A stretch of 64,000 nucleotides of DNA. Source: Escherichia coli (GTDB taxonomy: Bacteria > Pseudomonadota > Gammaproteobacteria > Enterobacterales > Enterobacteriaceae). Location: the NCBI RefSeq assembly GCF_013315695.1, contig NZ_CP054353.1. One strand, given 5' to 3'. Within the stretch, counting starts at the first letter, position 1. Each line of letters opens with the position of its first letter. The notes below the pieces were generated by a model. The model was not told where the DNA came from and did no database searches. It saw nothing but the letters and a program-made list of their open reading frames with translations. Positions 6,399 through 52,172 of the stretch are shown here, one piece after another. The position numbers and the translations under genes were made by a program.

Positions 6399-6441
6399 TA
6401 GCGGCTATCATCCCCGTGCTTATGTTTAGTGTTTCCAAACT

Positions 6442-6469
6442 GGCGACCTCCCAAGGTCGCCTTTTTTTT
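6442..6469 (+). terminator. Rho-independent terminator
   Basis: GGCGACCT-ccca-AGGTCGCC hairpin followed by T8. Confidence 0.65.
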
Positions 6470-6488
6470 ATGTGCCATTGTCACCACC

Positions 6489-7107: not shown

Positions 7108-8346
7108 TCAAGAATTTTGGGAGTAAATTCGCGGGGTCATAACAACGATTTTTTCATCATTGTTCTGGAGAAGCTCGAGACGCTCAACCCATAGATTAAG
7201 AGCGTCACGTTTTGCATCGAGATAACGGGAGTGATTATAGACTCGTTGCATTCCTGGCAACTGGTGCGCGGTTAGCTGCTCCACTACATGAGGATCCACG
7301 CCTAAATCGTTCAGCATCGTTGTAAACGTGTGCCGGATGTCGTGCAACGTCCAGGGGGCTTGATTAATGCGTCTGTGTGCCGTTCTTCCGTACTCTGATA
7401 CAGATGATTGCCCTTTCAGTTCTCCGAGTAATAAGCCCGTGTGTCGGTTCTGCTCCACCAGCTTCGTTACGAACGGCAAGATCGCTTCCGGTATTGGCCT
7501 GAATATTGCTACCTTCGTTTTGCTGTGTTCTTTCGGCACAGTCCAGAGCATTTCTTTAAAATCCCATTCCTGGACCTCAGAGCGTCTTAGCTCAGTGGTA
7601 CGGCATCCGAAGACAATCAGGAGGCGAATCAGGGCGCTGTAGTACGGTGTGTAAATTTTTTCATCCAGGGCGCGTAGTAATTCCCCAAGCTCCTTGTTTG
7701 TTAGTACGCGCTCGCTTATTTCTGCTTTTTTCCCAACATCACCTACAACCATATCATCTAGAACGTTGGTAATTGCGTAGCGTCGTTTGCGGCAGTACTT
7801 AAGCGCCTGCTTGCATACCTGTAACAAAAATCCTGCTGATACCGGATTACGCATAGCAAGCTGATCAAAACAGGTCAGCCAGTGGCGTAGCTCGCATTTT
7901 TCCAGCGGCATAGCACCAATATGGCTGATTATGTGTGTATTGATCCGGCTTTTCAGAGATTCGTAATCTGTGCGCTTTTCCTTCGCGTACGATTCAAGCC
8001 AGTAAGTGAGCGCTTCCTTAACCGTAACAGGTGATAACGCTTCCTGTACGGTGTGATTAAGCTCATGGCGTGGATTTTTACCCTCAGCAAGCCAGGCGCG
8101 ACACTGCGACGCTTTTTCCCTGGCTGCTTTCAGGCTCAAATCTGGATAATTTCCCAGCCTCAGACGTTCAGGGGCTACCTTCCTGCCTGTTCCGGCCCTG
8201 TAAGTGAAATACCAGGTTAACAGGCCATTGGTTGAATGCCTTACGCTAAGGTTGCCACCATCATTAAAAAAGGTGTTTTTTGTGGTTGGTGATCCGCTTA
8301 ATTTTCGTAAAAGAGTGTCGCTAAGTCTATGAATTGCCCTGCTCAT
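7108..8346 (-). CDS. int: Tyrosine-type site-specific integrase
   Basis: 412-aa ORF; C-terminal catalytic region with HDIRHT and ...VYNHSRY (R-H-R-Y family pattern); located at island edge next to host gene. Confidence 0.85.
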   Translation of the reverse strand: MSRAIHRLSDTLLRKLSGSPTTKNTFFNDGGNLSVRHSTNGLLTWYFTYRAGTGRKVAPERLRLGNYPDLSLKAAREKASQCRAWLAEGKNPRHELNHTVQEALSPVTVKEALTYWLESYAKEKRTDYESLKSRINTHIISHIGAMPLEKCELRHWLTCFDQLAMRNPVSAGFLLQVCKQALKYCRKRRYAITNVLDDMVVGDVGKKAEISERVLTNKELGELLRALDEKIYTPYYSALIRLLIVFGCRTTELRRSEVQEWDFKEMLWTVPKEHSKTKVAIFRPIPEAILPFVTKLVEQNRHTGLLLGELKGQSSVSEYGRTAHRRINQAPWTLHDIRHTFTTMLNDLGVDPHVVEQLTAHQLPGMQRVYNHSRYLDAKRDALNLWVERLELLQNNDEKIVVMTPRIYSQNS

Positions 8347-8401
8347 GTTTCGAATTTCCGGTCATCAAAATTAACTACACCATTGACTACACCGAGCATC
8401 G

Positions 8402-8434
8402 TACAAGGGCGAACTGTGACGAACAAGGGCGAAC
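8402..8434. repeat. Direct repeats (ACAAGGGCGAAC x2) in int-proximal attachment region
   Basis: Two copies of a 12-mer 8 bp apart, plus CGAACAC repeats nearby, between int start and cspD; candidate integrase arm-type sites. Confidence 0.3.
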
Positions 8435-8750
8435 AAGAAAAACGAAATTATCCTTTATAATCATAGAAATAAATGAGATACCTACACCATGACGAACACC
8501 CACGAACACTAACTGATAAATAACTATCATCTATCGTTGGCATCAGCGACATCTGTCACATTCCTGTCAATAGCGTTAACTGCTTCAAATTTTTGATTCA
8601 TACCTGCCCCCTGGCCCCTGTCAAATGCTTGACGGCTCGCCCTAATTCTCTAAATTGTATTTCTAGAGTTGGCGAGGTTTTGAACAGCCCCCTCTCTGAC
8701 CCCGGTTTATTCCATCTTACTTGTATAAGATTTGCGAAGGATGTCGAAGC

Positions 8751-13213: not shown

Positions 13214-14868
13214 TCCGCGCGACCGCGCGCCAGCCACAGCACGCGTGAGAACATTTTTTTCAGCAGAGTCGGTACGGAATCCACACCACGACGTCCGGCC
13301 TCCATTGCCACTTCAATGGCAAGATCGGGTTTGGAAGAGCGATGGATCGCTTTCGAGATAATTTTGCGCAGATTCATCGGTACATTTTCCGGGATTTGCG
13401 CCACGCGGTGGAACACATCGGAAAATCCCTGGCGATACATAAAATGTTCCATATCCAGCGCCGGTAACGCCGTTAAATGTTCTCGTTCGGCTTCCCGATC
13501 GTTATTCAACAGGCTGCGTACCGTAGCGGCATATTTCTTCCCTGCTTCATCGCCATCGACCAGTACATGCCATTCAATCCCCATTCGCCGGGCAAATTTC
13601 ACCAGTGGTTTTAGCCCGGACTGGGCAAATTCAATGACCTTAATCCCTTCGGCATCGAAATGGTGTCCACACTGGCGCGCCAGTTCGTTGATAACCCAGG
13701 TTTCTGTTTCCCCTTCCACCAGCAGCCAGCAGCGTGCAAACAGCGATGATGGACGATTAAAACGAATGTGGAAAGAGATGCGTCGGCTATCTTCGGTACT
13801 CAAACCACTCGGCCCCAGACGCCAGGCGGCAACGCGCGAGGACTCACGTACCAGTCGGCAAACATGCTCTACCGGCGTTAACGAAAGCAACTCTCCCGAG
13901 TTGGTAGTAGCGATGCGCTGCAATGGCAGAAGATTCAACAGATGCCAGGCAACTGAAAGCATAATGGGGTGCAAACGGGTTTCTGGATCTTCGATCAGCA
14001 ACAATGGACGGGAGTCTTTATCCAGCCGCAATGTGCCTTTTGCCTGCAATAAAGTAGCAAACAGACCGAGCAAAATAACCCGATACGAGCGCCCTCCAGG
14101 TCGGTCAATCATCCGGTTGATGATATCCAGATAGCGCCAGCTTCGTTGCTCATTGCTGGCTCGCCGCCGCATTAAACGATATCGCGCCTGTCCAGCTCCC
14201 TGCTCAGAGAAATAATGCTCAAGCAGTTGCACCATTGCGGAAAGTCCCTGACGAATCTGTCCATCAGAGAGATTTTGCGGATGTGAGGACAACTCACGGG
14301 CGAGGAAATCGAGCTGGCGCGCGGTGACTTCCACATTAGGGACATTTGGCACCGTGCCGTTACGAATACGGCGCATAAAACGGGCATCACGCAAGCGCAG
14401 CACCGGCATTAAACGCACCAGATGGCGTGCCTGATCGTTAATATCCTCGACATCAATCGGATGTCCGTCTTTATCGAGAAAACTGCGGAGTGTCATCACG
14501 CTGCCGTCTTCCGCACTCTCCCCTTCCAGACGATAAAAAATACGGTGATAGCCATCGGTGCATGGCGTCCAGCACGCTTCCAGCGGCCGATAGCGGCGAA
14601 CCCGATGTCGGCCTGGCAGCGATTCGCGGAAGGTCAAAATAATATGCAGATGATGTTCTCGCCCGTTGATATCTCCCGGCGGGAACCAGAAATCGTCGCG
14701 CTCAAAATGGTAGAGATCTGATTCTGGCGATAGCAGCAGGGTTAAGGCGTCCAGCAAGCTGGATTTACCCCACGCGTTCTCCCCAATCAGGACGTTGTTT
14801 TGTTCCAGCATCAACGACAAACGGTTGATACCGCGAAAACCCACAATTTCAACGCGCTCAAGAATCAT
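13210..14868 (-). CDS. ybjD: OLD-family ATPase/nuclease-like protein YbjD
   Basis: 552-aa ORF with N-terminal P-loop (GENAWGKSS) ATPase; K-12 synteny. Confidence 0.85.
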   Translation of the reverse strand: MILERVEIVGFRGINRLSLMLEQNNVLIGENAWGKSSLLDALTLLLSPESDLYHFERDDFWFPPGDINGREHHLHIILTFRESLPGRHRVRRYRPLEACWTPCTDGYHRIFYRLEGESAEDGSVMTLRSFLDKDGHPIDVEDINDQARHLVRLMPVLRLRDARFMRRIRNGTVPNVPNVEVTARQLDFLARELSSHPQNLSDGQIRQGLSAMVQLLEHYFSEQGAGQARYRLMRRRASNEQRSWRYLDIINRMIDRPGGRSYRVILLGLFATLLQAKGTLRLDKDSRPLLLIEDPETRLHPIMLSVAWHLLNLLPLQRIATTNSGELLSLTPVEHVCRLVRESSRVAAWRLGPSGLSTEDSRRISFHIRFNRPSSLFARCWLLVEGETETWVINELARQCGHHFDAEGIKVIEFAQSGLKPLVKFARRMGIEWHVLVDGDEAGKKYAATVRSLLNNDREAEREHLTALPALDMEHFMYRQGFSDVFHRVAQIPENVPMNLRKIISKAIHRSSKPDLAIEVAMEAGRRGVDSVPTLLKKMFSRVLWLARGRAD

Positions 14869-15293
14869 ATCCCCTCCAGAAATATGTGACTTATCCTTTA
14901 CGCTGGCAGTATAACGGGAAAGGCCATGCTAATACGTGATGACATCACATTTAAGCATGGCAAATGTCTGAAAAATGAGCGAATAATCGCGTTATACTCC
15001 CTCTTGCTGATAAGCCTGCAAAAACAACAAAATCAAATAATTAGCATGATAAATTATTTTTTATTACGCCTAAAGGATTAAATCTTTTGCTTGCACTACA
15101 CTGTCAATCAGACAAATGACTATATGGGGCAACCCGCTGTTGCCCTAAATCAAATTTACTGGATTTATTTATCTGGTGAATGACTCGCCTTCGTTTTTAA
15201 AATAGCCGCGCATTATTTCCGTCGTCACTTTTTTACGACGACCCTATAAAACGACCATATTTTTCACAGGGTCAATTTTTAATTGAGGTGGAT

Positions 15294-15989
15294 ATGTTCA
15301 GAAAATTAGCAGCTGAATGTTTTGGTACTTTCTGGCTTGTTTTTGGTGGCTGTGGTAGTGCCGTACTGGCCGCAGGCTTCCCGGAATTAGGCATTGGTTT
15401 TGCCGGCGTGGCGCTTGCATTCGGTCTGACCGTTCTGACGATGGCCTTTGCTGTTGGTCATATTTCTGGTGGTCATTTTAACCCGGCGGTCACTATTGGT
15501 TTATGGGCTGGCGGACGTTTCCCGGCAAAAGAAGTCGTTGGCTACGTAATTGCCCAGGTTGTCGGCGGTATTGTTGCGGCGGCGCTGCTGTATTTAATTG
15601 CCAGTGGTAAAACGGGTTTTGACGCGGCAGCCAGCGGTTTTGCTTCTAACGGTTATGGCGAGCATTCGCCAGGCGGTTATTCCATGCTTTCCGCGCTGGT
15701 AGTTGAACTGGTATTGAGTGCAGGTTTCCTGCTGGTGATCCACGGCGCAACCGACAAATTCGCTCCGGCAGGTTTTGCGCCGATCGCTATTGGTCTGGCC
15801 TTAACCCTGATTCACTTAATCAGTATTCCGGTGACTAACACTTCTGTTAACCCGGCGCGCAGCACCGCGGTTGCTATCTTCCAGGGCGGCTGGGCGTTAG
15901 AACAACTGTGGTTCTTCTGGGTGGTGCCAATTGTCGGCGGTATTATCGGTGGTCTGATTTACCGGACCCTGCTGGAAAAGCGTAATTAA
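15294..15989 (+). CDS. aqpZ: Aquaporin Z
   Basis: MIP-family channel with two NPA motifs ([14 protein letters not shown]). Confidence 0.9.
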
Positions 15990-16001
15990 TTAACGCAGAA
16001 G

Positions 16002-16027
16002 GCCTGGCGCAATGTCAGGCTTTTTTT
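16002..16027 (+). terminator. aqpZ rho-independent terminator
   Basis: GCCTG-loop-CAGGC hairpin followed by T7 directly after aqpZ stop. Confidence 0.55.
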
Positions 16028-16112
16028 AAAATGTTGTTATATGTTGATTCATCATCTTGTTGCGCTCCTTTCATGAGCTAAGCCACATATTGCCACTGAC
16101 GCAAGGAGCGCG

Positions 16113-16141
16113 CAGGGGGCGGCCAATCGCCGCCGCCCCCT
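16113..16141. repeat. GC-rich palindrome
   Basis: CAGGGGGCGGC-caatcgc-GCCGCCCCCTG, perfect 11-bp arms. Confidence 0.4.
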
Positions 16142-16253
16142 GCCCCCCCGGGCTCTGGCGAACAAAATCGCCGCTGCGCGGTACCCTCGGCTTATCCCTT
16201 GCGGCTACCGGGTCGGGCGCGAGGTAACATATATGGACGCTCCCGGAATGCAA

Positions 16254-16503
16254 TGCTTTCTTCAGTTATGTAATAAAACGGGTAGGTGCAGCCATATATC
16301 CGGTTTCTGATGGGATTTTTATCCCGAACCATGATGAAATCCGCCAGGCAGGTACCAATCATCCTCTACGGGCTAACTTGCCCTTGTTACCTCTCGGTGT
16401 ATCCTGCCTGCGGTCTTACCTGTTTTGCCATCTTCTGAAGTCACCTGCACCTACCAGGACGTTAACTTTTTTTCAGCACCTCGTCAGATTGACTGACCTT
16501 GTG
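16254..16503 (-). ncRNA. Candidate structured non-coding RNA (possible bridge RNA) 3' of IS110-family recombinase
   Basis: 250-nt non-coding region with long-range inverted repeat GGTAGGTGCAG / CTGCACCTACC and local hairpins; bridge-RNA assignment is by analogy only. Confidence 0.25.
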
Positions 16504-17529
16504 TCAGGCGAGCTGCCGAGGTTGATATTCAGTATTGTGTGACAACATTGACCACATGATCCTCGCTGTTTTTGCCGCCATGGCGACAACAGCTACATTG
16601 TAGTGCTTCCGCTCAAGGAGTCCCTGAAGCCAGGAATTCTCCTCAACCGCGCCGTTTCGGTTGACCCAGGCGGTAAGTGCGCGTGCGCCGTGAACCAGCA
16701 GGTATCGGAAATATCCATCTCCACGTTTGCTGATCCCTCCCAGTTGCTGTTTCCCGCCGCTGGAATGTTCCTTTGGTGTCAGCCCCAGCCATGAAGCGAA
16801 CTGCTTTGCGGTACTGAATTGTCGGGCATTACCCACTGCTGCTACCACATAAGTGGCCGTTAGCATGCCAACCCCCGGGATCTTGGCCATTCTCTGGCAG
16901 GCTTCCTGCGTTCTATACCAGGAGGCCAGAGCTTCTTCTACCTGTTTAACTTGTTCTTCAAGTTCCCGGATATGTTTAGACTGTCTGTAGATGCTGGTTC
17001 TGACAAAGGGAGATAAACCATTTTCGCCATCCTCCAGAATGGCTGGCAGCTCACGTGTTAAATGGCTTTGTCCGGCCGCAATCGTAATACCAAACTCAGC
17101 AAGTGTGGCTCTTAAACTATTGGCACAGGCAATCCGCTCACGGATAAGTATTCCCCGTTCAGTGTGTAACGCTAAAACGGCCTGCTGCTCTTCGGTTTTT
17201 ATCTGAACAAAACGCATATTCGGACGGGTTACCGCTTCGCAGATTGCTTCAGCATCTGCTGCATCCGTCTTGTTCGTTTTCACATAAGGCTTCACATACT
17301 GCGGAGGTATGAGTTTTACCTCATGACCATAGCGGGTGAATAATCGCGCAAAATAATGACTGGATGAGCAGGCTTCCATGCCAATCAGACAAGGTTCCAG
17401 TTGAATCACAAACTGAACAAACTTAGCCCGGGTGAGCTTTTTACGCAAAATAGTATGGCCTTCATGATCGACACCATGAAGCTGAAAAACGTTCTTTGCC
17501 AGGTCGATACCAAGAGTTGATACTTTCAT
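16504..17529 (-). CDS. IS110-family transposase/recombinase (DEDD RuvC-like N-domain + C-terminal HhH domain)
   Basis: 341-aa ORF; N-terminus GIDLAKNVFQLHGVD and C-terminal AKIPGVGMLTATYVVAAVGNARQF...GISKRGD match IS110/IS1111 transposase family patterns. Confidence 0.8.
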   Translation of the reverse strand: MKVSTLGIDLAKNVFQLHGVDHEGHTILRKKLTRAKFVQFVIQLEPCLIGMEACSSSHYFARLFTRYGHEVKLIPPQYVKPYVKTNKTDAADAEAICEAVTRPNMRFVQIKTEEQQAVLALHTERGILIRERIACANSLRATLAEFGITIAAGQSHLTRELPAILEDGENGLSPFVRTSIYRQSKHIRELEEQVKQVEEALASWYRTQEACQRMAKIPGVGMLTATYVVAAVGNARQFSTAKQFASWLGLTPKEHSSGGKQQLGGISKRGDGYFRYLLVHGARALTAWVNRNGAVEENSWLQGLLERKHYNVAVVAMAAKTARIMWSMLSHNTEYQPRQLA

Positions 17530-17530
17530 G

Positions 17531-17606
17531 TGGACGCTCCTAATTTTTCAGGACGTATTGCAACGATCCAGTCTGGTACTTTGATACCGTAAAATCTGGA
17601 GCGTCC
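17531..17606 (-). promoter_or_regulatory. RBS-sequestering hairpin in recombinase leader
   Basis: On minus-strand RNA, TGGACGCTCC (from 17606-17597) can pair with GGAGCGTCCA (17540-17531), which contains the GGAG Shine-Dalgarno immediately before the ATG. Confidence 0.4.
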
Positions 17607-17760
17607 ATCTCATTATCCCTGTAAAACGCGCCCTCAGCCCACATCCATGTGGGCTGCCCCGGCCTTCAGGGAACGCCTCGGCGATTTTGACGCCACCAAA
17701 CAACCGTGCGGCCTATTGATAAAGAGCTAACACATTGTCAAAAAACATCACTATGGTTTC

Positions 17761-18708
17761 TTAGAGTTTCTCGATATCAATTGCCTGAATAGCCCTTGCA
17801 ATATCAGGGGAATTATTCAACACCCGAACATGCTGAAATAATTCTGTTGCTTCATCGTATTCTTTACGCAAATAACTCAACCACTGTTTAATCCGCGCTA
17901 CGTGATATAACCCGGTATCGCCCTGCTTTTCCAGACGGGTATATTTTTGCAGCAAAGCAACTACCTCCGGCCACGGCATTCGCGGTTCGTTATATTTTAC
18001 CACCCGGCTCAGGTTGGGAATATTGAGCGCCCCGCGACCAATCATCACTGCGTCACAGCCGCTGATCGCCATGCATTGTTGCGCGCTCTGCCAGTCCCAG
18101 ATTTCACCGTTGGCAATCACCGGAATATTCAACCGCTGGCGAATCTCGCCAATCGCCTGCCAGTCAATATGCTCCGCGCGGTAACCCTGCTCTTTTGTCC
18201 GCCCATGTACTACCAGCTCCGTAGCGCCAGCCTGTTGCACCGCATCGGCGATTTCAAATTTCTTCTCACCGCTGTCCCAGCCCAGACGCACTTTTACGCT
18301 GACGGGCAAATGCGCCGGTACAGCTTCGCGCATCGCTTTTGCACCCTGATAGATGAGTTCAGGATCTTTGAGTAACGTCGCCCCACCGCCGCTACCGTTA
18401 ACCGTTTTCGACGGGCAGCCGCAATTGAGATCCACGCCCCAGGAACCTAACTCGACCGCACGGGCGGCATTCTCTGCCAGCCATTGTGGGAACTGACCTA
18501 ACAACTGCACGCGCACCAGCGTACCGGATGGTGTCCGGCTGGCGTTTTGTAGCTCAGGGCAAATGCGATGAAAGACTTTTACCGGCAGCAGTTGATCCAC
18601 CACGCGGACAAACTCGGTGATGCACAGATCGTAGTCGTTAACTTCGGTCAGCAATTCACGCACCAGAGAGTCGAGTACACCCTCCATCGGTGCCAGTAAC
18701 ACACGCAT
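17761..18708 (-). CDS. dusC: tRNA-dihydrouridine synthase C
   Basis: 315-aa Dus-family TIM-barrel flavoenzyme; recognised as DusC (YohI). Confidence 0.9.
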
Positions 18709-18769: not shown

Positions 18770-19963
18770 TCAGCGTGGTTGCAAACAGTTATCTTCTTTC
18801 CAGCCGTACAGCCACTCCATGCCGCGGTAAAACTCTGCCTGCGATTTCCCTTTCCACAGCAGGTTACGTACCTGGCGCTCTACTCCTGCGGCATGATAAA
18901 CCCGCCCCATTTCACGGGTCGACCAGATGATGCGCGCGGTGCGCGGTATACGTACCGACTCATACAGCGCAAAGGCTTGTGCCGCATCACCCTCACACTG
19001 CGCCAGCGCCTTACCCAGTGTTACCGCGTCTTCCAGCGCCATACAGGCACCCTGCGCCATATACTGCGCCACCGAATGGGCCGCATCGCCCACCAGCGTA
19101 ATGCGCTTCGTTCCCCACTTCGCTACCGGTTCACGGTCGGCGGTTGACCAGCGTCGCCAGGAGGTCGGTTTATCCAGCATCTGGCGCGGACGGGGGTGAA
19201 TCCCTTCAAAGTAAGAGAGCACTTCCTCTTTACTGCCATCTTTCACGCCCCACTCTTCCTGCTGGCGGCTGTGGAATGTCACCACCAGGTTATACTGCTT
19301 GCCGCCGCGTAAAGGGTAATGCACCAAGTGACAGCACGGCCCCGCCCACAGTACTGGTGCGTTAATGCGCAAATCTTCCGGCATATCGGCACAATCGATA
19401 ACCGCACGGTAGACCACATGCCCGGTGACACGCGGCGCATCGCCCAATAAGCTCTGGCGCACCACTGACTTCACGCCGTCACAGCCAATCAGAATATCGC
19501 CGATCCAACTATTGCCGCGATCGTCGAAAACGGTGACATCGTCTTCTGTCTCGCGAATATCCACGACGTTGGTGGAGGTGTGATATTCCACGTCCGGATG
19601 CGTCAGTACCGCTTCCCACACCGAGGCATGAATATCAACCCGGTGGATCACCGCGTAAGGGCCGCCGAAATGATCGCGAAAGGCCTGACCGGTTTCAATG
19701 CGCACCACTTCTTCGGCGTTTACCGCATCCATCATGGTGATGTGATCGGTGAATACCGCGCGCTGGCGGGCGATTTCGCCGACGCCGAGGCTATCCAACG
19801 CCGAAAACGCATTTGGCCCCAACTGGATACCTGCGCCAATCTCACCGATCTCATGCGCCTTTTCCAGCAGCACCACTTTGATCCCCTGGCGGGCCAGTGA
19901 CAACGCAGTTGCCGCACCGCCGATCCCGCCTCCCACAATTACTGCGCGTGTCACTTTAGTCAT
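18770..19963 (-). CDS. mhbM: 3-hydroxybenzoate 6-hydroxylase (FAD-dependent monooxygenase)
   Basis: N-terminal GGGIGG FAD-binding fold, salicylate-hydroxylase-like; last gene of mhb-type cluster. Confidence 0.7.
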
Positions 19964-19977
19964 TATGGTTCTCCTGG

Positions 19978-20637
19978 TCAGGCTGAAATTTTATCTTGTT
20001 GATTTTCTGGCGCTGCGGCAATGAACGCTGGCAGCTGCGTGCAGGCGTCGTACACCGCTTTGCAGCGCGGATACCCGCTCAGATCGCAGTTCATACGTAG
20101 CGCGTTCGCCCACTGTGGAACAAGGCAGCAATCTGCCAGCGTCGGCGTCTCGCCCACACAAAATTGCCCCGACTGGCTCTGGCGCAGTAGCTGTTCCACC
20201 GCGCTTAACCCTTGCTGGATCCAGTGCGCATACCAGCGTTTTTTATCTTCTTCACTGACGTTCAGCTCTTCGGTCAGGTAGCGCAGCACGCGTAGGTTAT
20301 TCAATGGATGAATATCGCAGGCGATGGCATAGACAATTTCCAGCACCTTGTTGCGGGCCGGTTCTTCCTGCGGCATCAGCGGAACTTGCGGGTAGTGACT
20401 CTCCAGCCAGTCAATAATCGCCAGCGATTGTCCGAGTGATTCGCCCTCGTCGGTCAGCAGCGTCGGCACCAGCCCGACCGGATTCATCCGCCGGTAGGCC
20501 AGTTCGTTTTGCTGACCAATGCGGATATTCACCCCTTCGGTCTGGTAATCGATACCCTTCAGCGCCAGCGCAATGCGCACCCGGTAAGACGCTGAACTAT
20601 TAAAAAAACTGTACAGCTTCATCATCACCTCAGACAA
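19978..20637 (-). CDS. mhbI: Maleylpyruvate isomerase (zeta-class glutathione S-transferase)
   Basis: GST-fold N-terminus ([18 protein letters not shown]) typical of maleylacetoacetate/maleylpyruvate isomerases. Confidence 0.7.
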
Positions 20638-21331
20638 TCTTCACCGCGATAGGCGTTAAGCCCTCGACGTTGCCCGTGATCACATCACCTTTGACTACTG
20701 GGCCAACCCCTTCCGGCGTACCTGTAAAGATTAGATCGCCCGGTTGCAGTTCAAAGAAGCCTGACAGGTAGCTGATGGTTTCATTCACTGACCAGATGAG
20801 ATGACGAATATCGCTGCGCTGATGATCTTCGCCGTTAACCTGTAACCAGATAGGTGCGTTATCAATACCGCCAGTTTCGCTGGCTTTGTGCAGCGGCGCG
20901 ATGGGGGCCGAGAGATCGAACGCTTTGCCGATTTCCCACGGGCGGCCCATCTGGCGCATTTCCATTTGACGGTCACGGCGAGTCATATCAAGACCCGTGG
21001 CATAACCCCAGACATATTCATGGGCGTTTTCCAGCGGGATATCACTGCCTTTTTTACCAATCGCCACCACCAGTTCAATTTCATAATGGTAGTTATCGGT
21101 CTGCGCCGGATACGGCAGCGCCAGCGTTTCGCCAGCGGCAACCGGAACAACGGCATCCGCCGGTTTGCAGAAGAAGAATGGCGGTTCACGATCCGGATCA
21201 AAGCCCATTTCACGGGCGTGGGCGGCATAGTTACGTCCGACGCAGTAAACGCGGCGTACGGGGAATTGTTCATCACTGCCAACAACCGGTACGGTAACGG
21301 GCGCTTGTGGTTCGAATACGTATTGAGTCAT
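20630..21331 (-). CDS. mhbH: Fumarylpyruvate hydrolase (FAH family)
   Basis: FAH-family pattern ([16 protein letters not shown]...). Confidence 0.7.
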
Positions 21332-21346
21332 TTTCTCTCTCCCAAA

Positions 21347-22375
21347 TTAATAACGCGCTTCGCGGAACAGCCCCAGGGCTTCTTGTACCGGTCTGTCCGA
21401 AAAACTAAATAAAACGGTATCTTGCGTGGTCTGGAACGACACGCCGTGCCAGGTCGGCACCACGAAGATATCTTTTGCACTAAAGCTGAAGGTTTCATTG
21501 CCGATAGTGACCTGCCCGCTACCTTCCACCACATGGTAGATGGTGCTGTCAGTGGTACGCGCCACGCGTGAGGCAAACCCTTTCGGCAGCAGTTGCAGGA
21601 AAGCGCCCATCGACGGCATCGGATAGCCACCGGTGACCGGGTTGACGTAGCGCATTTTGTAGCCATCCCACTCATCGGCATCGCCCAGGCGGGTTAAATC
21701 GTGTAGCACTTCGCGGCTACGCTCATAACGGTAGTTAAAGATGGGCGAGGAGTTCCCGGTCTGATGGCGCAGCGGCAACATATTGGCAGCGTAACGCGGC
21801 AGATAATCGCCCTCTTTACGCGTTACTGGTTGTTGCTCCTCCGGGTAATCTTCGGCAAAACCGCAGCCCAGAGTGTTCACTAATGGCAGATCCAGCCCAT
21901 CGAGCCAGATAACCGGTTCGTCGCCAGGGTTACCGTGATCGTGCCAGCGCCACTGCGGGGTCAGGATAAAATCGCCCTCATTCATTGGCGTGCGTTCGCC
22001 ATCAACGGCGGTGAATGCCCCTTTACCTTCAACAATAAAACGCAGCGCCGACTGGTTATGGCGATGACTCGGTGCCACTTCGCCCGGCATGATCAGTTGC
22101 AAACCGGCATATAAAGTCGCGGTGATGGAAGACTGCCCGCGCAGCGCCGGGTTTTCCAGCACCAGCACGCGGCGCACGGCTTCTTTCGCGCCAATCAGGC
22201 TGCCGCTCTCCAGCAGCAGCGGGCGGATCTCCTGATAATTCCAGTACGCTGGCGCACAGTTAGCGTTGGGCGTTTTTGGCACCAGATGGTGCAGTGACTC
22301 CCACAGAGGGGTCAGGTTTTGCCCGGAAATATACTGATAAAATTGCTCGCGGCTATTTTGATTGTTATCAGTCAT
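21347..22375 (-). CDS. mhbD: Gentisate 1,2-dioxygenase (bicupin)
   Basis: 342-aa cupin protein with His-rich metal motif ([13 protein letters not shown]) and gentisate-dioxygenase-like N-terminus. Confidence 0.75.
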
Positions 22376-22386
22376 TGGGATGCTCC

Positions 22387-23745
22387 TTATTCGTTCACAA
22401 CACCTGCGTGAGGCAGTGAGTCAGGGACAGAGGTCGACTGGCGAACCACGGTGATCAGCAGGGTTAACATCACCGCACTGATCGCCGCGGGCACAGCGAT
22501 AATGAAAAACAGAGTGTCGAAAGAGAAATTCATCGCCATCATCACGCCGCCAGACAGCGAGCCAACAATCGCGCCGCAGCGGCCCACGGCGTTTGACCAG
22601 CTCACGCCCGTGGCGCGACTTTGTGTTGGATAAAGTGTTGCGGTCAGCGCATTCAGCCCCACCTGCGATCCGCTGATGCCAATGCCGGTGCCGAAAATCG
22701 CCAGCGCCATTAGCCATAATCCGTCCTGGCTTAAGCCAATCATCACGATGCATACAGCGCCTATGGCATAGCTCAGCGCCAGTACGCGGAAAGGATTGAA
22801 CTTATCCATCAGCACGCCCAGCGCCAGCGCGCCCAACGTACCGCCAATCTGGAACGCGGCGGTAACCCAGGAGGCATGTTGCAGGTCGATGCCGCGATGG
22901 TTGAGCAGCGTTGGCATCCAGCTTGAGAGCAGGTAAATAATCAGCAAGCTCATAAAGAACACCACCCACAGCATCAACGTGATGGGTAACTGACGCCCCA
23001 TAAACAGTTGACGAATGCTGCCTTTTGTAACGGAGGCTGATTCAATGAGATAAAAGTGGGTATCGACATAACGCTCGCGGGTGATGGCGCTGACGGTTTT
23101 CGCAATCACCGCCTGGGGTAGCTGGCGGCGCACCTGCCAGCGTGGCGATTCCGGCAGAACCACCAGCAGTGCAACAAACAGCATCAGCGGTAATACGCCA
23201 CCCAACACCAGGATCCCGTGCCAGCCAATCACCGGCACCAGCTGCGCGCTGACAATCCCACCAAACGCCGAACCCAGGGTAAAGCCGCAAAACATCAGCG
23301 TCACCAGCGCGCCGCGGCGGCGGGCAGGCAGATATTCCGAGGTCATGGTAATTGTGTTTGGCATCGCGCCACCCAGCCCAAGGCCGGTGAGGAAACGGAG
23401 GAATACTAGCGTTTGCAGATCCGGTGAGAAAGCCGAGGCGAGGCTTAACGCGCCAAACAAAAAGACGCACAGCTCAATCACCCGTTTGCGGCCAAAGCGA
23501 TCGGACAACGGACCACAAAGCAGTGCGCCTGCGGTTAACCCCAGCAGACCCGCGCCAAAAAGCGGGGCGAGATCGCCTGCGGTGAGTTGCCAGTGAGTGC
23601 GAATATCAGGGGCGATAAAGCCGATAGCCGCGGTGTCAAAACCATCGAGCATTACCACCAGAAAACAGCAGATGATAACGCGCCACTGCATCTTGCCGAC
23701 CGGAGCAGCATCGATCAGTGCTTGTAAATCACGTCGTTGAGTCAT
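22387..23745 (-). CDS. mhbT: MFS aromatic-acid transporter (3-hydroxybenzoate transporter-like)
   Basis: 452-aa, 12-TM MFS profile; first gene of the catabolic operon. Confidence 0.7.
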
Positions 23746-23871
23746 AGTAAATGCCTCAGTGCAGGTAAGGTAGATGTTTCTTTTGTTTTATGTATGTTGC
23801 GATATTGTGATTAAAGAGATGAAATGTACAATGGCATTTCGGGCAGAGAGATAACCTGGAGGTTATGGCAA

Positions 23872-24780
23872 ATGGCAAACTGGGCGCAGAAACTAAAGCT
23901 TCATCACCTGCAAATGCTGGTGGCGCTGGGTGAACAGGGCAATCTGACCCATGTGGCGCGGATGATGAATATCACCCAGCCTGCGCTGTCGAAATGGTTG
24001 TCACAACTCGAAGATGAGATCGGCCTCACACTCTTTGAGCGGCACAGCAAAGGGTTACGCCCTACCGAAGGCGGTAGATTGTTATTGCAACATGCCCAGC
24101 GGTTAATCAATGACATGGAGCGCTCGCAACATGAACTGGCCCGTTTTAAACAAGGTGGGCTGGTCGGCAGTCTGAAAATTGGCTGTTCTCCCGTCGCCAC
24201 TGACTGCGTATCACAGGCGATTTTGCATTTGCTCAAGGAGATGCCAACTCTACACCTGAATATTGAAGAGAAGGTTATGACCCCATTGCTGCAAGATCTG
24301 TTGGCAGGTTCTGTCGACGTGGTCGTTGGGCGAATTGGCGGTCGCGCCTTGCAGCTGCCACTGAATTATAAGGTGCTCTACACCGAGCCGGTGTGTTTTG
24401 TCGCCCGTGCTGAGCATCCACTGGCGAAATACGCCACCCTCAGCTGGAATGATCTTGCTAACTGGCGGTGGATAGTCTGGCCGACAGGTACCCCCATTCG
24501 CATCAGTATTGATAATGCGCTGGTAGACCACGGCGTGATGCTGCCAGAAAACACGATTGAGTCGGCGTCGATGAACGTCAGTACCAACCTGTTACAAAGC
24601 AGCGATATGATCTCTATTTTGTCATTACGCCTGGCGCAACGTTATGCCAGCCAGGGACAACTGGTGATCCTCAACCTGCCAAAGATAGAACAGAAAGGCA
24701 GCGTCGGTGTGTTCTGGCGCAATAACGAAACGCCTTCTTATGCTTTAAGTCAGTTTCTGCACTTTTTACAGCAGAATTAG
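23872..24780 (+). CDS. mhbR: LysR-family transcriptional regulator of the gentisate cluster
   Basis: N-terminal LysR HTH (LQMLVALGEQGNLTHVARMMNITQPALSKWLSQLE); divergent from operon; start set at MANWAQK with GGAGG RBS. Confidence 0.75.
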   Translation: MANWAQKLKLHHLQMLVALGEQGNLTHVARMMNITQPALSKWLSQLEDEIGLTLFERHSKGLRPTEGGRLLLQHAQRLINDMERSQHELARFKQGGLVGSLKIGCSPVATDCVSQAILHLLKEMPTLHLNIEEKVMTPLLQDLLAGSVDVVVGRIGGRALQLPLNYKVLYTEPVCFVARAEHPLAKYATLSWNDLANWRWIVWPTGTPIRISIDNALVDHGVMLPENTIESASMNVSTNLLQSSDMISILSLRLAQRYASQGQLVILNLPKIEQKGSVGVFWRNNETPSYALSQFLHFLQQN

Positions 24781-38892: not shown

Positions 38893-40884
38893 TCAGAAGC
38901 GATAATCCACTGCCATAAAGTAACGACGTCCGTCTTCGTTATAGCTGTAGTCGTCACGACTGAGATCCTTGTCGCCAAGGTTCAGCACGCCTGCGCGCAG
39001 TTTGACGTCTTTAGTTACCTGCCAGGCCGCACCGGTATTCCAGATGGTATAACCGCCCGGTGTTTTAGCCGTCGCGCTGTCGGCGCGTTTCTGCCCGGTA
39101 TAGTGACCAGAAACATAGAATGACCAGTCTTCCAGCGCCAGCGGTTTCCAGTCCAGCGTACCGTTAGCAGTATGGAACGGCAGATCGGATAGCGGTTTGT
39201 TTTCGCCGTTGCTGACATCACGACCATCGTTGTAGGTGTAGTTGAGTGACAGTTTCCATTCATCGTTGAACGGAATTTTCAGCTCGGTTTCCACGCCCTG
39301 AATACGTGCTTTGTTAACGTTGTAGTAGCTGAATACCGGTATGCGCCGTCCGTTAGCGCCCGTCTCAAAACCGACAAAGTTTTGGTAGCCCGGTGCAGCA
39401 TTGACGTCAGACGTACGGCTGATGCTGATGCGATCTTTCACATCGTTACGGAAAACGGTAACGCTGGACTCCACCCCTTCCAGCCAGCCTTCTTCACCCA
39501 TGTAGTAAAGCCCCAGCTCCCAACTTTCGCTGGTTTCTGGTTTCAGATCCGGGCTACCCACAATCTTACATGCGCCACGGCAGGAATTGCTCGTCCAGTC
39601 AGGGCTAAGTTGCAACAGAGAAGGCGCTTTAAATGCCGTCGCCCAGCCCCCTTTCACCGTTACGGTGTCGGTGGCGTTATAAACCAGGTAGGCACGCGGA
39701 CTCCAGTGTTCACCGTAGGTTTCATGATCGTCCATACGTACGCCGGTCGTCAGCGCCAGCGGCTCGAAGATCCGCCATTCATCTTCCACAAACAGCGCGT
39801 ACTGGCTGGCAGATGTTTTGGAGCTGGTTCCCCCTGTCAGGTTCACCTCATCGCTAAGTTTGTCGTGACGCCATTCACCGCCAACCGTGAGAAACTGATT
39901 AATCGCCGTTAACGGCAACGTGTATTTGCCGTCGACCGTATTGCTTTCGGAAGTTATCGGGCTGCTGTTGCCGGGGTTTTTGTTCTCGACTTTCTCACCG
40001 TAGTATTTCAGTTCGCTGGTGCCGTAATCCCAACGCCCATTATGGCTAACGGAGTAGTTCTGGCGTTCCAGGCGGTTTTTGTCCAGCGAGTCGGAATCAC
40101 GATCCTGACGGTCGAAACCGTATCCGGCAGTAAAATCGTGATTTTGATTCGGTGTCCAGGCAAATTCGACATTGCCGTCGCGGCTGGAGAATCCTTCAAT
40201 ACGCGGCGTTTCTCCGGTATCGGTGGTCGTTGAGTTTTGCGGGTCATCCTTTTCACGTTTTGCCAGGCTGCCGTAAGCTTTCATTCCCAGCACGCCGTCA
40301 ATTAATGGTCCGCTGGTAAAGAACTGACCGTTATAGGTATCACCGCGATCGCGATGTTCCTGAACGGTGGTATCGACGGTAACGGTGCCCGACCATTTCT
40401 GACCGATTTTTTTGGTGATGATATTCACTACACCGCCGAGCGCATCGGAACCGTACAGCGACGACATCGGACCACGGACCACTTCAATACGTTCGATGGA
40501 ATCGACCGGGATCCAGTTCAGATCGAAATCATTGTGGCGGAAGACGGCATTGCGGGAGTTAACGCGTTTACCGTCGACAAGAATCAGGGTGTAGCTGCTG
40601 TCCAGACCACGAATACTTACGCCCTTACGGTTATCCCCTTCGTTCGTCAGTTGTACGCCAGGCACTTCTTTGAGGACATCCTTCAGATTCTGTACCGGTT
40701 TTCGCTGCAGGTCTTCCTAGGTAATGACGCTGATACTGGCGGGTGCATCTTTAAGGTTTTGCTCAACGGAAGATGCAGTGACAACCATCGTTTCGCCATC
40801 ATCATCGACCGCTAACACAGGCCATGCACAAGAAATAGCGGACAAACACAGCCCGACCCGTACGAAAGGGTTCAACCTAAACAT
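38893..40884 (-). pseudogene. cirA: cirA (catecholate siderophore / colicin Ia-Ib receptor) interrupted by in-frame amber codon
   Basis: Reading frame from ATG at 40884 encodes the CirA signal peptide and TonB box (ETMVVTA) then TAG at codon 56 (minus-strand codon 40719-40717) where K-12 has Gln, as I recall; the rest of the 663-codon frame is intact. Confidence 0.7.
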
Positions 40885-46957: not shown

Positions 46958-48208
46958 CTACGCTAAGCCAATAAAGAACCCGGCAATGGTAGCGCTCATC
47001 AGGTTAGAAAGTGTCGCCGCCGCCAGCGCGCGTAAACCAAGCTGGGCGATTTCCGGCGCGCGGTGTGGCGCAACCGCAGAAAATGCCCCAACCACTACCC
47101 CGATAGAACCAAAGTTAGCGAAACCGCACAACGCGAAGGAAATAATCGCCACGGTTTTAGCATCCAGAGTGCCAGCTGTTTGCAGATAAGGTGAGAAATT
47201 GAGGTAAGCGACAAATTCATTAATCGCCAGTTTCTGTCCAATCAAACTCCCGGCAAGATTCGCATCACTCCAGTCAACCCCCATCACCCACGCCAGTGGA
47301 GCCAACAGGTAACCTAAAATGGACTCCAGCGAGGCATGTTCAAAACCAAACCAGCCGCCAACGCCGCCGATAATACCGTTAATCAACGCAATTATTGCAA
47401 CAAATGCCATCACCACTGTCGCTACACCGGCGGCGATTTTCAGCCCGGTCATTGCCCCTGTCGCAGCGGCTTCAATAATGCTTTTTGGCGGTGTTTCGGT
47501 GAAAGAGAGGTTATTAAAAGAAACCTGCGAAGATTCCGTAGCCGGGCTTAACAGGCGGGCAAACAAGATCCCGCCTGGGATCGCCATTAACGATGCCGCC
47601 AGCAAATATTCCACAGGTACGCCCAGTGCGGCGTAACCAATCATTGTCGAACCAGCAATCGAGGCCATGCCACTACAAATCGCTGTAAATAATTCATTGC
47701 GATTCAGCCGATCGATAAAGGGTTTGACGATTGCCGGAATTTCGTTTTGCCCGAGGAAAATGGTAGTGACCGCGACGAATGACTCGATCTTGCTGATATT
47801 TAATGCTTTCTGGAAGATACCGCCGAGAATGCGAATTAAGATCCCCATCACACCGATGTAGTAGAGAATACTCACCAGCGCGGTGACGAAGATAATTGCC
47901 GGTAATACTCTGAAACCAAAGATAAATCCTGCACCATCAAACAGCGTGTCCATTTTCGGCCCGACCAGCGAACCGAAGATAAATGCGCTACCCGCGTCGC
48001 TGTACGCCATCACTTTATGCACGCCAAAAGCGACTTTTTCTGCGACCCAACGCCCTGGCGGTAACCAAAGCATAATCCCGCCAATCACGACCTGTAACAC
48101 TAACGCCGCGCCAACGGTACGCAGGCTTATCTTCTTCTTGTTTACTGACAGTAAAAACGCAATTGCCAGCAGTACCACCATTCCCAGAACACTTCTCATG
48201 ACATCCAT
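46958..48208 (-). CDS. nupX: Nucleoside permease (NupC/CNT family)
   Basis: 416-aa CNT-family transporter; paralog of psuT in this window. Confidence 0.85.
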   Translation of the reverse strand: MDVMRSVLGMVVLLAIAFLLSVNKKKISLRTVGAALVLQVVIGGIMLWLPPGRWVAEKVAFGVHKVMAYSDAGSAFIFGSLVGPKMDTLFDGAGFIFGFRVLPAIIFVTALVSILYYIGVMGILIRILGGIFQKALNISKIESFVAVTTIFLGQNEIPAIVKPFIDRLNRNELFTAICSGMASIAGSTMIGYAALGVPVEYLLAASLMAIPGGILFARLLSPATESSQVSFNNLSFTETPPKSIIEAAATGAMTGLKIAAGVATVVMAFVAIIALINGIIGGVGGWFGFEHASLESILGYLLAPLAWVMGVDWSDANLAGSLIGQKLAINEFVAYLNFSPYLQTAGTLDAKTVAIISFALCGFANFGSIGVVVGAFSAVAPHRAPEIAQLGLRALAAATLSNLMSATIAGFFIGLA

Positions 48209-48307
48209 AGTGATTATCTCTTCATGTCATTTTGGGCGACGGCTTTCTGCCCATCAGAAATAGCCGGGCCTGCATCTTGCGATACTGTCCCGGCTTGTTA
48301 TCAACAC

Positions 48308-49249
48308 TTAATGGGTTTTGATGTAGCCGCGCACGCACTCTTCGACTAAGCCCCAGAACCAGTCGGTATCAATAGTGATGCCGACTTTGGTATTAGCGGG
48401 CTTGCCAAGAACGCCCAGTTCGTCGCAGACGGTACGCCCGTAGCAAGGGCCGCTGTTGACGTCCACTTCGACGTACATCTCCTGGGTTTTAATGCCATCA
48501 GGGTTGATCAGATAACCAATGCAGGTGGCGTCGTGCACCGGGCCGCCAGCCAGGCCGTAGTTTTCGAACTGGGTTTTGAGAGTGAAGTTCATGATGTCGC
48601 TGAACAGCTCTCCGGCAGGGCCGCCTGCCCTTTCCATCCGAGCAATTACGTCCGGGGTGCAAACGGTCTGGTTGGTAAGATCGAGGCCCATCATCACTAA
48701 TGGAACGCCGGAGGTGAACACCACGCGTGCGGCTTCCGGGTCAGCAAAGATGTTGAACTCGGCAGATGGGGTGAAGTTGCCTGTACCGTAAGCGCCGCCC
48801 ATTAGCACAATTTCACGGATTTTGGGCAGGATCGCGGGTTGCATACGCATTGCCACCGCGATATTTGAAAGCGGACCAACCGGCACCAGAGTGATATCGC
48901 CATCGCTTGCCATCAGGGTATCAATGATATATTTCACCGCATGAGTGCTTTCTGCCTGGCGGGTCAGCGGCTCGAATACCGGGCCATCCAGTCCGGTTTC
49001 ACCGTGAATATTATCGGCAACGATTTGTTGCCGCATAATGGGTTGTGGCATCCCCGCATAAACCGGAACATTAATCTCCAGTTTCTGGCAAACATTCAGG
49101 CCATTAATTAATGTTTTATCGAGGGTTTGATTACCCGCTACAATGGTGATACCTAATAAATCAATCGCCGGATGTTTCGCTGCCATCATCATTGCAATAG
49201 CATCATCATGACCCGGATCACAATCCAGAATAATTTTTCTCTTTTCCAT
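48308..49249 (-). CDS. rihB: Pyrimidine-specific ribonucleoside hydrolase RihB
   Basis: 313-aa IU-nucleoside hydrolase with N-terminal DCDPGHDDA motif. Confidence 0.9.
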
Positions 49250-49326
49250 TGTTTATTTCCTCTGTTTCCAGGGTGATGCTGCCAACTTACTGATTTAGTG
49301 TATGATGGTGTTTTTGAGGTGCTCCA

Positions 49327-49602
49327 GTGGCTTCTGTTTCTATCAGCTGTCCCTCCTGTTCAGCTACTGACGGGGTGGTGCGTAACGGCAAAAGCACCGC
49401 CGGACATCAGCGCTATCTCTGCTCTCACTGCCGTAAAACATGGCAACTGCAGTTCACTTACACCGCTTCTCAACCCGGTACGCACCAGAAAATCATTGAT
49501 ATGGCCATGAATGGCGTTGGATGCCGGGCAACAGCCCGCATTATGGGCGTTGGCCTCAACACGATTTTACGTCACTTAAAAAACTCAGGCCGCAGTCGGT
49601 AA
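49327..49602 (+). CDS. insA: IS1 InsA
   Basis: 91-aa protein with CPSC...CSHC zinc finger; recognised IS1 InsA. Confidence 0.9.
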
Positions 49603-50024
49603 CCTCGCGCATACAGCCGGGCAGTGACGTCATCGTCTGCGCGGAAATGGACGAACAGTGGGGCTATGTCGGGGCTAAATCGCGCCAGCGCTGGCTGTTT
49701 TACGCGTATGACAGGCTCCGGAAGACGGTTGTTGCGCACGTATTCGGTGAACGCACTATGGCGACGCTGGGGCGTCTTATGAGCCTGCTGTCACCCTTTG
49801 ACGTGGTGATATGGATGACGGATGGCTGGCCGCTGTATGAATCCCGCCTGAAGGGAAAGCTGCACGTAATCAGCAAGCGATATACGCAGCGAATTGAGCG
49901 GCATAACCTGAATCTGAGGCAGCACCTGGCACGGCTGGGACGGAAGTCGCTGTCGTTCTCAAAATCGGTGGAGCTGCATGACAAAGTCATCGGGCATTAT
50001 CTGAACATAAAACACTATCAATAA
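49521..50024 (+). CDS. insB: IS1 InsB (expressed as InsAB' by -1 frameshift)
   Basis: 167-aa ORF overlapping the insA 3' end in the -1 frame; recognised IS1 InsB. Confidence 0.85.
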
Positions 50025-50194
50025 GTTGGAGTCATTACCTGTTTCCAGTTGCGTTATTTTTTCTACAGCAAAGAAAATTCGACCGGGCCGATGATTGAAT
50101 CTTAACAACAGCGTACGTATGCTAAATATGAGAAATCTCATAGCGGATAAACATCGTGAAAGAAATCCACAATAATGATCTTAAGCAGCAATTG

Positions 50195-50854
50195 ATGAGT
50201 GAATCCGCGTTTAAGGATTGCTTTTCAACGGATGTTTCAGCCGATACGCGGCTGTTTCATTTTTTAGCACGTGACTACATTGTGCAGGAAGGGCAACAGC
50301 CGTCATGGCTGTTTTACCTGACGCGAGGCCGCGCCAGGCTTTACGCCACGCTAGCTAATGGTCGCGTGTCGCTGATCGATTTCTTTGCCGCCCCCTGTTT
50401 TATTGGTGAGATTGAGTTAATCGATAAAGACCATGAACCGCGTGCGGTGCAGGCTATTGAAGAGTGTTGGTGCCTTGCGCTCCCTATGAAACATTACCGC
50501 CCGCTGTTATTAAACGACACGCTATTTTTACGAAAACTCTGCGTTACTTTAAGCCATAAAAATTATCGCAATATTGTTTCTTTAACTCAGAATCAATCAT
50601 TTCCGTTAGTGAATCGCCTGGCAGCATTTATATTACTCTCACAAGAAGGTGATCTTTATCACGAAAAGCATACGCAAGCGGCAGAGTATTTAGGCGTTTC
50701 TTATCGACATCTTTTATATGTTCTCGCGCAATTCATTCACGACGGTTTATTAATTAAAAGCAAGAAAGGATATCTAATTAAAAACAGAAAGCAGTTGTCA
50801 GGACTGGCGCTGGAGATGGACCCGGAGAATAAATTCTCCGGGATGATGCAGTAA
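50195..50854 (+). CDS. yeiL: CRP/FNR-family regulator YeiL
   Basis: cNMP-binding-like domain plus C-terminal HTH; start set at MSESAFK. Confidence 0.8.
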
Positions 50855-50921: not shown

Positions 50922-52172
50922 TCAAGCTAAACCAATAAAGAACCCGGCAATGGTCGCGCTCATCAGGTTGGAAAGCGTTGCTGCTGCCAGCGCCCGTAAA
51001 CCAAGCTGAGCGATTTCCGGTGCGCGTTTTGGCGAAATAGCCGAAAATGCCCCAACGACAACACCGATAGAACCAAAGTTAGCAAAACCACAAAGCGCAA
51101 AGGAGATAATCGCCACGGTTTTCACTTCCAGCGTGCCGCTCGTTTGCAGGTATGGGGAGAAACTCAGGTAAGCGACGAATTCGTTAATCGCCAGTTTCTG
51201 CCCAATCAGGCTACCCGCAAGGTTGGCATCACTCCAGTCCACACCCATGATCCACGCCAGTGGTGCCAACACATAGCCAAAAATACTTTCCAGAGAGGCA
51301 TTGGCGAAACCAAACCAGCCGCCAATTCCGCCGATAATGCCGTTGATCAGCGCAATAATTGCGACAAACGCCATTACTACCGTCGCTACACCAGCGGCGA
51401 TTTTCAGCCCGGTCATCGCACCGCTCGCCGCTGCTTCGATAAAGCTTTTTGGCGGCGTTTCGCTGAACGACAGATTTTCAAATGTGACCTGCGAAGGCTC
51501 GGTTGCCGGGCTAAGAATACGTGCAAACAAAATACCACCAGGGATCGCCATCAGCGATGCCGCTAACAGGTAGTCAATTGGTACGCCCATTCCGGCATAA
51601 CCAATCATCATCGAACCAGCAATGGACGCCATCCCGCTACAAATAGCCGTAAACAACTCGTTGCGATTCATGCGATCGATAAACGGTTTAACGATCGCCG
51701 GGATCTCATTTTGCCCGAGGAAAATAGTGGTAACCGCAACAAAAGATTCGATTTTGCTGATGTTGAGGGCTTTCTGGAAAATGCTGCCAAGGATGCGAAT
51801 CAGCAGCCCCATCACGCCAATGTAGTACAGCAGACTAATGAGCGCAGTGACGAAGATAATCGCCGGGAGTACGCGAAAGGCGAAGATAAAACCCGCACCG
51901 TCAAAGAGGACATCCATTTTCGGCCCAACCAGCGAACCAAAAATGAAGGCGCTACCGGCATCACTGTAAGACATCACTTTATGAACGCCTAATGCCGCCT
52001 GTTCTACCGCCCATTTTCCTGGTGGAAAATAGAGCATGATTCCGCCAATGGCGATTTGTAGCAGCAACGCGGCTCCAACCGTGCGCAAACTGATGCTCTT
52101 TTTATTCACTGACAACAAAAATGCTATTGCCAGTAACACCACCATCCCCACAACACTTCTCATTATATCCAT
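50922..52172 (-). CDS. psuT: Putative pseudouridine/nucleoside transporter (NupC family)
   Basis: 416-aa CNT-family transporter upstream of psuG/psuK; K-12 synteny. Confidence 0.85.
   Translation of the reverse strand: MDIMRSVVGMVVLLAIAFLLSVNKKSISLRTVGAALLLQIAIGGIMLYFPPGKWAVEQAALGVHKVMSYSDAGSAFIFGSLVGPKMDVLFDGAGFIFAFRVLPAIIFVTALISLLYYIGVMGLLIRILGSIFQKALNISKIESFVAVTTIFLGQNEIPAIVKPFIDRMNRNELFTAICSGMASIAGSMMIGYAGMGVPIDYLLAASLMAIPGGILFARILSPATEPSQVTFENLSFSETPPKSFIEAAASGAMTGLKIAAGVATVVMAFVAIIALINGIIGGIGGWFGFANASLESIFGYVLAPLAWIMGVDWSDANLAGSLIGQKLAINEFVAYLSFSPYLQTSGTLEVKTVAIISFALCGFANFGSIGVVVGAFSAISPKRAPEIAQLGLRALAAATLSNLMSATIAGFFIGLA

Follow-up and report, generated by a model that had tools for sequence, protein, structure and literature searches.

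An IS1 insertion in the shared rihB–yeiL control region of a clinical Escherichia coli lineage

The divergent genes rihB and yeiL are separated, in the window (the whole 64-kb stretch of Escherichia coli DNA analysed here), by a control region that contains an IS1 element. How this insertion arose, and what it does to the genes on either side, are the questions raised by this locus. We favour the account of a recent and ordinary IS1 insertion, by which rihB would be uncoupled from its upstream region and the core promoter of yeiL would be preserved. As a whole this account appears quite probable; its consequences for expression are what we infer from the arrangement of the sequence.

The IS1 element and its target site

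The window contains one copy of IS1, which is complete, transposition-competent and of the IS1A type. The features of the element and of the adjacent genes are as follows.

46958–48208, minus strand: nupX, located 99 bp downstream of rihB (ORF listing, profile match)
48308–49249, minus strand: rihB, 313 aa, intact (ORF listing; NF007417, 728 bits; RefSeq annotation of the 100%-identical AF3)
49258–49262, minus strand: Shine-Dalgarno sequence of rihB, GAGGA, kept, 9 nt from the IS1 end
49263–49271, no strand: left copy of the 9-bp target-site duplication, TGTTTCCAG (sequence, repeat finder)
49272–50039, plus strand: complete IS1 of the IS1A type, 768 bp (annotated by RefSeq as IS1A family transposase in AF3 and MSB1_4I)
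49272–49294, plus strand: IRL, left terminal inverted repeat, overlapped by the inward promoter pIRL (repeat finder)
49279–49306, plus strand: pIRL, inward promoter CTGCCA-16-TATGAT (consensus scan)
49327–49602, plus strand: insA, 91 aa (ORF listing)
49327–50024, plus strand: InsAB' transposase, 232 aa, frameshift-dependent (reconstructed fusion protein)
49578–49584, plus strand: A6C slippery site, at which a -1 frameshift leads to InsAB' (reconstructed fusion protein)
50017–50039, plus strand: IRR, right terminal inverted repeat (repeat finder)
50040–50048, no strand: right copy of the target-site duplication, TGTTTCCAG (sequence, repeat finder)
50156–50854, plus strand: yeiL, 232 aa from GTG, intact, with an alternative ATG at 50194 (ORF listing; NF007707, 420 bits; the GTG is the RefSeq start)

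The element starts with GGTGATGCTGCCAACTTACTGAT and ends with ATCAATAAGTTGGAGTCATTACC, as read from the sequence between 48900 and 50400, and its inverted repeats of 23 nt each are 78% complementary according to the repeat finder. Its length, its inverted repeats, the insA/A6C/insB' layout, the 9-bp duplication and the near identity to a known isoform all agree with the IS1 family. Particularly, the IS1A of K-12 MG1655 (NC_000913.3, 19796–20563) has the same 768 bp, inverted repeats, insA, A6C site and insB' frame, and is identical at 767 of the 768 positions. The sole difference is located at position 444 (G for T); it presumably changes Ser to Arg in InsB' (DSLRK to DRLRK). The K-12 copy, however, occupies another chromosomal location, and the rihB–yeiL region of K-12 is without IS1. 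In a profile search, the reconstructed InsAB' matches NF033558 'IS1 family transposase' with 245 bits against a cut-off of 100. The near identity to the K-12 isoform and the profile match of the fused transposase bear out the preliminary description, which had identified the element as IS1.

The same description had placed the insertion at 49263–50048, in the divergent intergenic region beside the rihB Shine-Dalgarno sequence, 22 nt from the rihB start codon and with an intact 9-bp duplication, and all of these points hold. These coordinates enclose IS1 and both copies of the repeat exactly. The minus-strand rihB frame begins at 49249 and IS1 starts at 49272, which leaves 22 nt (49250–49271) between the ATG and the IS1 end. 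IS1 typically duplicates 9 bp of its target, sometimes 8, and the duplicated sequence is single in the uninserted site. The repeat finder reports a 10-nt direct repeat, CTGTTTCCAG (49262–49271 and 50039–50048), because the terminal C of IS1 at 50039 happens to equal the window base at 49262; the true duplication is 9 bp long.

Comparison with IS-free intergenic sequences, which the preliminary description had proposed as a check, gives the same picture. MS 21-1 and K-12 MG1655 both have an empty site with one TGTTTCCAG each, and their 129-bp intergenic regions are identical in the alignment. When IS1 and one repeat copy are deleted from the window, the resulting 409 nt are 100% identical to MS 21-1. 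Of the 5426 complete E. coli genomes, 5356, among them K-12, have the site uninterrupted. Three independent lines confirm the structure of the insertion. IS copies are a frequent cause of misassembly, and an assembly artefact, or a flanking repeat that matches merely by chance, would mimic such an insertion; but two complete genomes that were sequenced independently, one from the UK and one from Australia, share these junctions, relatives agree exactly with the reconstructed empty site, and 9 identical bases would fall at the two fixed positions by chance with a probability of about 4e-6. We give this explanation practically no weight.

The insertion arose by ordinary IS1 transposition into the AT-rich intergenic DNA, duplicating the 9-bp target TGTTTCCAG. 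IHF sites are favoured by IS1; the target here contains no match to WATCAANNNNTTR with up to one mismatch allowed. In addition, the region contains no Rfam match at E <= 1. The GC content of the target region is 36–39%, and IS1 is described as preferring AT-rich targets (PMC9330008).

The carrier lineage and other insertions at rihB–yeiL

The window belongs to a rare, IS1-rich clinical lineage. At least 99% identity over the 12.3-kb left flank is found in five complete genomes only (AF3, MSB1_4I, MS 21-1, AF14 and AF10), and the next tier, which includes IAI39 and CE10, lies at 98.5–98.7%. The IS1-containing query is matched in one piece in two genomes only, AF3 (100%), from a blood culture in the UK, and MSB1_4I (99.9%), from a rectal swab in Australia. 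Two of the five closest genomes therefore carry the insertion and three (MS 21-1, AF10 and AF14) are empty, so that the insertion arose within this rare lineage, after its split from the nearest sequenced relatives. This distribution supports the earlier suggestion that the insertion is relatively recent. The protein accessions of RihB (WP_000415455.1), NupX and YeiL are identical in carriers and non-carriers. The earlier framing of the locus in terms of K-12 is misleading, as the window comes from a clinical lineage; a K-12 origin is ruled out by the empty K-12 site, with 97.3% identity over the 409-nt query.

Both AF3 and MSB1_4I give at least 40 matching pieces to the IS1-containing query. 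Moreover, AF3 harbors an extra IS1 between ybjD and aqpZ (14192–14959 of the retrieved AF3 segment; the window counterpart is at about 14960–14968), which is 100% identical to the rihB copy and flanked by its own 9-bp duplication, GCAAATGTC. This site is empty in the window and in MSB1_4I, and the extra copy indicates that IS1 is still transposing in the lineage. Since the window is without the ybjD–aqpZ copy of AF3, and its positions 1–8513 are missing at the corresponding place in AF3 and MSB1_4I, the window represents a third strain of the lineage. The insertion is a recent event within this lineage, common by descent to at least three strains (the window strain, AF3 and MSB1_4I).

Other lineages have at least six independent IS1 events within rihB–yeiL, of which four interrupt yeiL or hit its start codon. 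In one cluster of clinical genomes, several of them named 361 or ST361, IS1 is located at the yeiL GTG with the duplication AACATCGTG, and in some genomes of this cluster an IS1-adjacent deletion has removed the 5' half of yeiL. In EC06 and ECCHD184 IS1 is located inside yeiL, in G1/2 it is located in yeiL together with a rearrangement, and in P377 it is located inside rihB. These events fall in the same 1.8-kb stretch as the window insertion, but they differ from it in site and duplication. They hit the yeiL start or coding sequence; the IS1 in the window spares all three genes. Overall, about 39 genomes contain a same-orientation IS1 inside the 1.3-kb query, a count that is biased to the query orientation. 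If IS1 copies were spread uniformly, about 20 genome-instances would be expected as a rough figure (about 10 IS1 per 5-Mb genome, 5426 genomes and a region of 1.8 kb). The excess gives no evidence of enrichment, and an insertion hot spot was rejected; most instances come from one clone, so neither a hot spot nor selection is established.

Several further observations concern other parts of the window. Positions 1–8513 resemble a phage- or satellite-like island, and colinearity with AF3 and MSB1_4I starts at 8514, between cspD/yljB and clpS. A synteny breakpoint relative to K-12 is located at about 15288–18708, where the cydDC-infA-clpA-macAB-ybjD-aqpZ block adjoins dusC-yohJK-cdd; in K-12 these two segments presumably lie at about 0.9 Mb and about 2.2 Mb. 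The corresponding features are listed below.

12–1067, minus strand: capsid-like ORF of the island
2816–4954, minus strand: primase/helicase-like ORF of the island, 712 aa
7108–8346, minus strand: tyrosine-integrase-like ORF of the island
16504–17529, minus strand: IS110-family transposase gene, 341 aa, at the synteny junction

Between dusC and yohJ, at 18770–24780, lies a 3-hydroxybenzoate/gentisate catabolic cluster composed of mhbT, gtdA, maiA, a monooxygenase and a LysR regulator according to the AF3 annotation; to our knowledge, K-12 is without this cluster. In addition, cirA (38893–40884, minus strand), encoding the catecholate siderophore receptor, is cut short by a stop at codon 56 (...SISVIT*EDLQRK) and is a pseudogene in the AF3 annotation. 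Loss of CirA is associated with colicin and cefiderocol resistance.

Predicted consequences for rihB, nupX and yeiL

The insertion splits the 129-bp control region into 22 and 107 bp. The rihB side retains only the 22 nt, and the remaining 107 bp, up to the yeiL GTG, are moved 777 bp further from rihB, across IS1. Ahead of rihB, the ribosome-binding site alone is retained, and the recognisable upstream elements all remain with yeiL. On the minus strand, the 99-bp rihB–nupX gap (48209–48307) has neither a terminator-like nor a promoter-like site; nupX is possibly co-transcribed with rihB, as we infer from this arrangement, and would then share the effects on rihB. The intact state of rihB, nupX and yeiL fits recency or continued use alike. 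The genes nupX and psuT (50922–52172) are direct paralogues with about 79–80% nucleotide identity over about 1.3 kb, and they bracket rihB–IS1–yeiL; they could be substrates for recombinational deletion of the segment between them.

Classically, IS1 is polar in both orientations. The geometry of a polar insertion, with the IS between promoter and coding sequence, fits the locus if the rihB promoter is intergenic; no rihB-directed intergenic candidate beats shuffled sequence. The preliminary description had called rihB poorly expressed or cryptic in K-12, which finds support in the literature: E. coli rihB has been termed 'physiologically silent', with a 25-fold induction in AI-2-conditioned medium (PMC2898832). 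Our literature search found no paper naming rihB together with IS1.

Promoters were scored with a simple weight matrix, shuffled sequence serving as control, and spacers of 15–19 nt were tested behind the outward -35 hexamers; the consensus scans used alongside miss non-sigma-70 and activator-dependent promoters. For reference, pIRL scores 7.6 and the predicted yeiL promoter 11.2 in the same matrix. Activation by IS1 via a fusion promoter combines an outward -35 in the IS end with a correctly spaced -10 in the flank, the latter being necessary (PMC9330008). The IRL does provide an outward -35, TTGGCA, which faces rihB 8 nt from the IRL end. Behind it, no usable -10 is present at spacers of 15–19 nt (CAGAGG, AGAGGA, GAGGAA, AGGAAA and GGAAAT, all scoring <=1.0), and a transcript initiated there would be predicted to start at or beyond the rihB ATG, without the Shine-Dalgarno sequence. 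Within 250 nt, the best outward candidate inside the element is TGGAGC-18-TACACT (49326–49297), which scores 5.2 and is equalled or exceeded by 70% of shuffles, and the consensus scan of the left end finds pIRL on the plus strand only and no promoter on the minus strand. A fusion promoter at either junction (spacers 15–19 nt) and an internal outward promoter were both rejected on these results. The best candidate directed at rihB in the empty allele does not outscore shuffled sequence either, which fits the published silence of rihB; for the same reason, there may be little native rihB transcription to lose. A GC-rich hairpin with a T-rich tract (TCGGCCCGGTCGA ATTTTCTTTG; 50079–50091, minus strand) resembles a terminator on the rihB-directed strand upstream of rihB. 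The empty allele also has it, and it may be a chance occurrence.

On the yeiL side, three elements are recognised between IS1 and the coding sequence.

50095–50123, plus strand: best predicted yeiL promoter, TTGAAT-17-TATGCT, intact (score 11.2, reached by about 5% of shuffles)
50095–50108: FNR-like site TTGAATCTTAACAA, overlapping the predicted yeiL promoter (motif search)
50127–50142: perfect 7-2-7 palindrome TATGAGAAATCTCATA, between the predicted yeiL -10 and the yeiL start (motif search)

All three are located to the right of the insertion and are still joined to yeiL. The palindrome, which departs from the CRP consensus at two positions, resembles an operator of the CRP/FNR family; it is a candidate autoregulatory site for YeiL. 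The core promoter of yeiL would be preserved in this arrangement, with a modest effect on yeiL at most.

Two other outcomes have to be weighed against a polar or neutral insertion. IS1 could activate the silent rihB, and nupX with it, through a fusion promoter at IRL, an internal outward promoter, read-through from IRR, or the breaking of a silencing nucleoprotein structure as at bgl. Fusion promoters made by IS1 are documented, as is the activation by IS1 of silent genes, blaTEM and acrEF among them (PMC9330008); moreover, the region is AT-rich, rihB is reported to be silent, and its retained Shine-Dalgarno sequence could allow an outward transcript to be translated. Set against the fusion-promoter requirement, however, the outward -35 hexamers are without a correctly spaced -10, so that activation is disfavoured, and the internal candidate stands at shuffle level. 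The parallel with bgl fails on position: IS1 is located downstream of all upstream sequence, and the rihB promoter itself would be separated rather than de-repressed. We consider activation improbable. Alternatively, the main regulatory effect may fall on yeiL, either by read-through of insAB' transcripts via IRR or by the displacement of Lrp or IHF activator sites by 777 bp. The insA/insAB' genes are transcribed towards yeiL, and only 47 bp of native DNA are left upstream of the predicted yeiL -35, so that any activator site further upstream is displaced. In addition, RegulonDB has yeiL among the targets of Lrp (PMC2374795). The intergenic region, by contrast, contains no IHF consensus within one mismatch and only poor Lrp-like matches, and the insertion leaves the promoter candidate, together with the FNR-like site and the palindrome (50127–50142), untouched on its downstream side. 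Control of yeiL by Lrp, IHF, RpoS and FNR was reportedly described by Anjum et al. in 2000. As for read-through, pIRL is weak and repressed by InsA, which makes it a weak source. The outward -35 hexamer of IRR that faces yeiL, TTGGAG, has no usable -10 behind it at spacings of 16–18 nt (GTTGCG, TTGCGT and TGCGTT), and the fusion candidates score <=0. A principal effect on yeiL seems rather unlikely.

The preliminary description had proposed that the insertion likely rewires the expression of rihB and possibly of yeiL; this proposal is supported only in part. Judged from these sequence features, IS1 most likely acts as a polar insertion, or has no effect, in front of a gene that was silent beforehand, rather than activating it. 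For rihB, the most probable change would be the loss of whatever regulated transcription existed, or no measurable change; the gene would stay silent or be more firmly silenced, losing any inducibility. An inward promoter in IRR was reportedly described by Machida et al. in 1984, and low-level read-through across IS1 from this promoter could reach rihB. A wider reading takes the insertion as non-neutral, in that transcripts exiting IS1 give constitutive low-level expression of rihB–nupX, or in that repeated IS1 hits reflect selection against a YeiL/RihB module; we judge it very improbable. If the constitutive version were true, the bloodstream and gut lineage would have gained a new route of pyrimidine-nucleoside uptake and hydrolysis. 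If the selection version were true, YeiL/RihB would have been inactivated or uncoupled in unrelated clinical lineages (the cluster with 361/ST361 names, EC06, ECCHD184, G1/2 and P377).

Significance and comparison with known IS1 systems

The insertion is an ordinary polymorphism, which is already annotated in two RefSeq genomes. As a textbook event, IS1 with a 9-bp duplication, it has little significance beyond strain typing. As a lineage marker it does set AF3, MSB1_4I and the window strain apart from AF10, AF14 and MS 21-1, and it provides a natural near-isogenic pair in which the dependence of rihB–nupX expression on the shared rihB–yeiL control region can be tested. If nucleoside catabolism were changed, the locus would be a modest case of IS-driven regulatory evolution in a clinical clone.

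Known IS1 systems resemble the locus to different extents. Fusion promoters formed by IS1, as summarised in PMC9330008 (Prentki et al. 1986 on blaTEM-1, the activation of acrEF, and Goussard et al. 1991 on TEM-6), share with it an IS1 just upstream of a poorly expressed gene and the outward -35-like TTGGCA in the facing end. They differ in that the flank here offers no correctly spaced -10, and with 22 nt to the ATG, the start would miss the ribosome-binding site. The cryptic bgl operon, activated by IS1 or IS5 (context in PMC2646131), is alike in having an IS in AT-rich DNA upstream of a laboratory-silent gene. In the window, IS1 is located between all of the upstream DNA (107 bp) and the Shine-Dalgarno sequence, an arrangement unlike that of bgl. 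There, according to what Reynolds, Felton and Wright are said to have reported in 1981, the IS is located upstream of both the CRP site and the promoter and lifts the silencing, with the promoter still joined to the operon. The classical polar IS1 insertions in the gal and lac leaders share the geometry of the window insertion, in which IS1 is located between the presumed promoter region and the first gene of a possible rihB–nupX unit.
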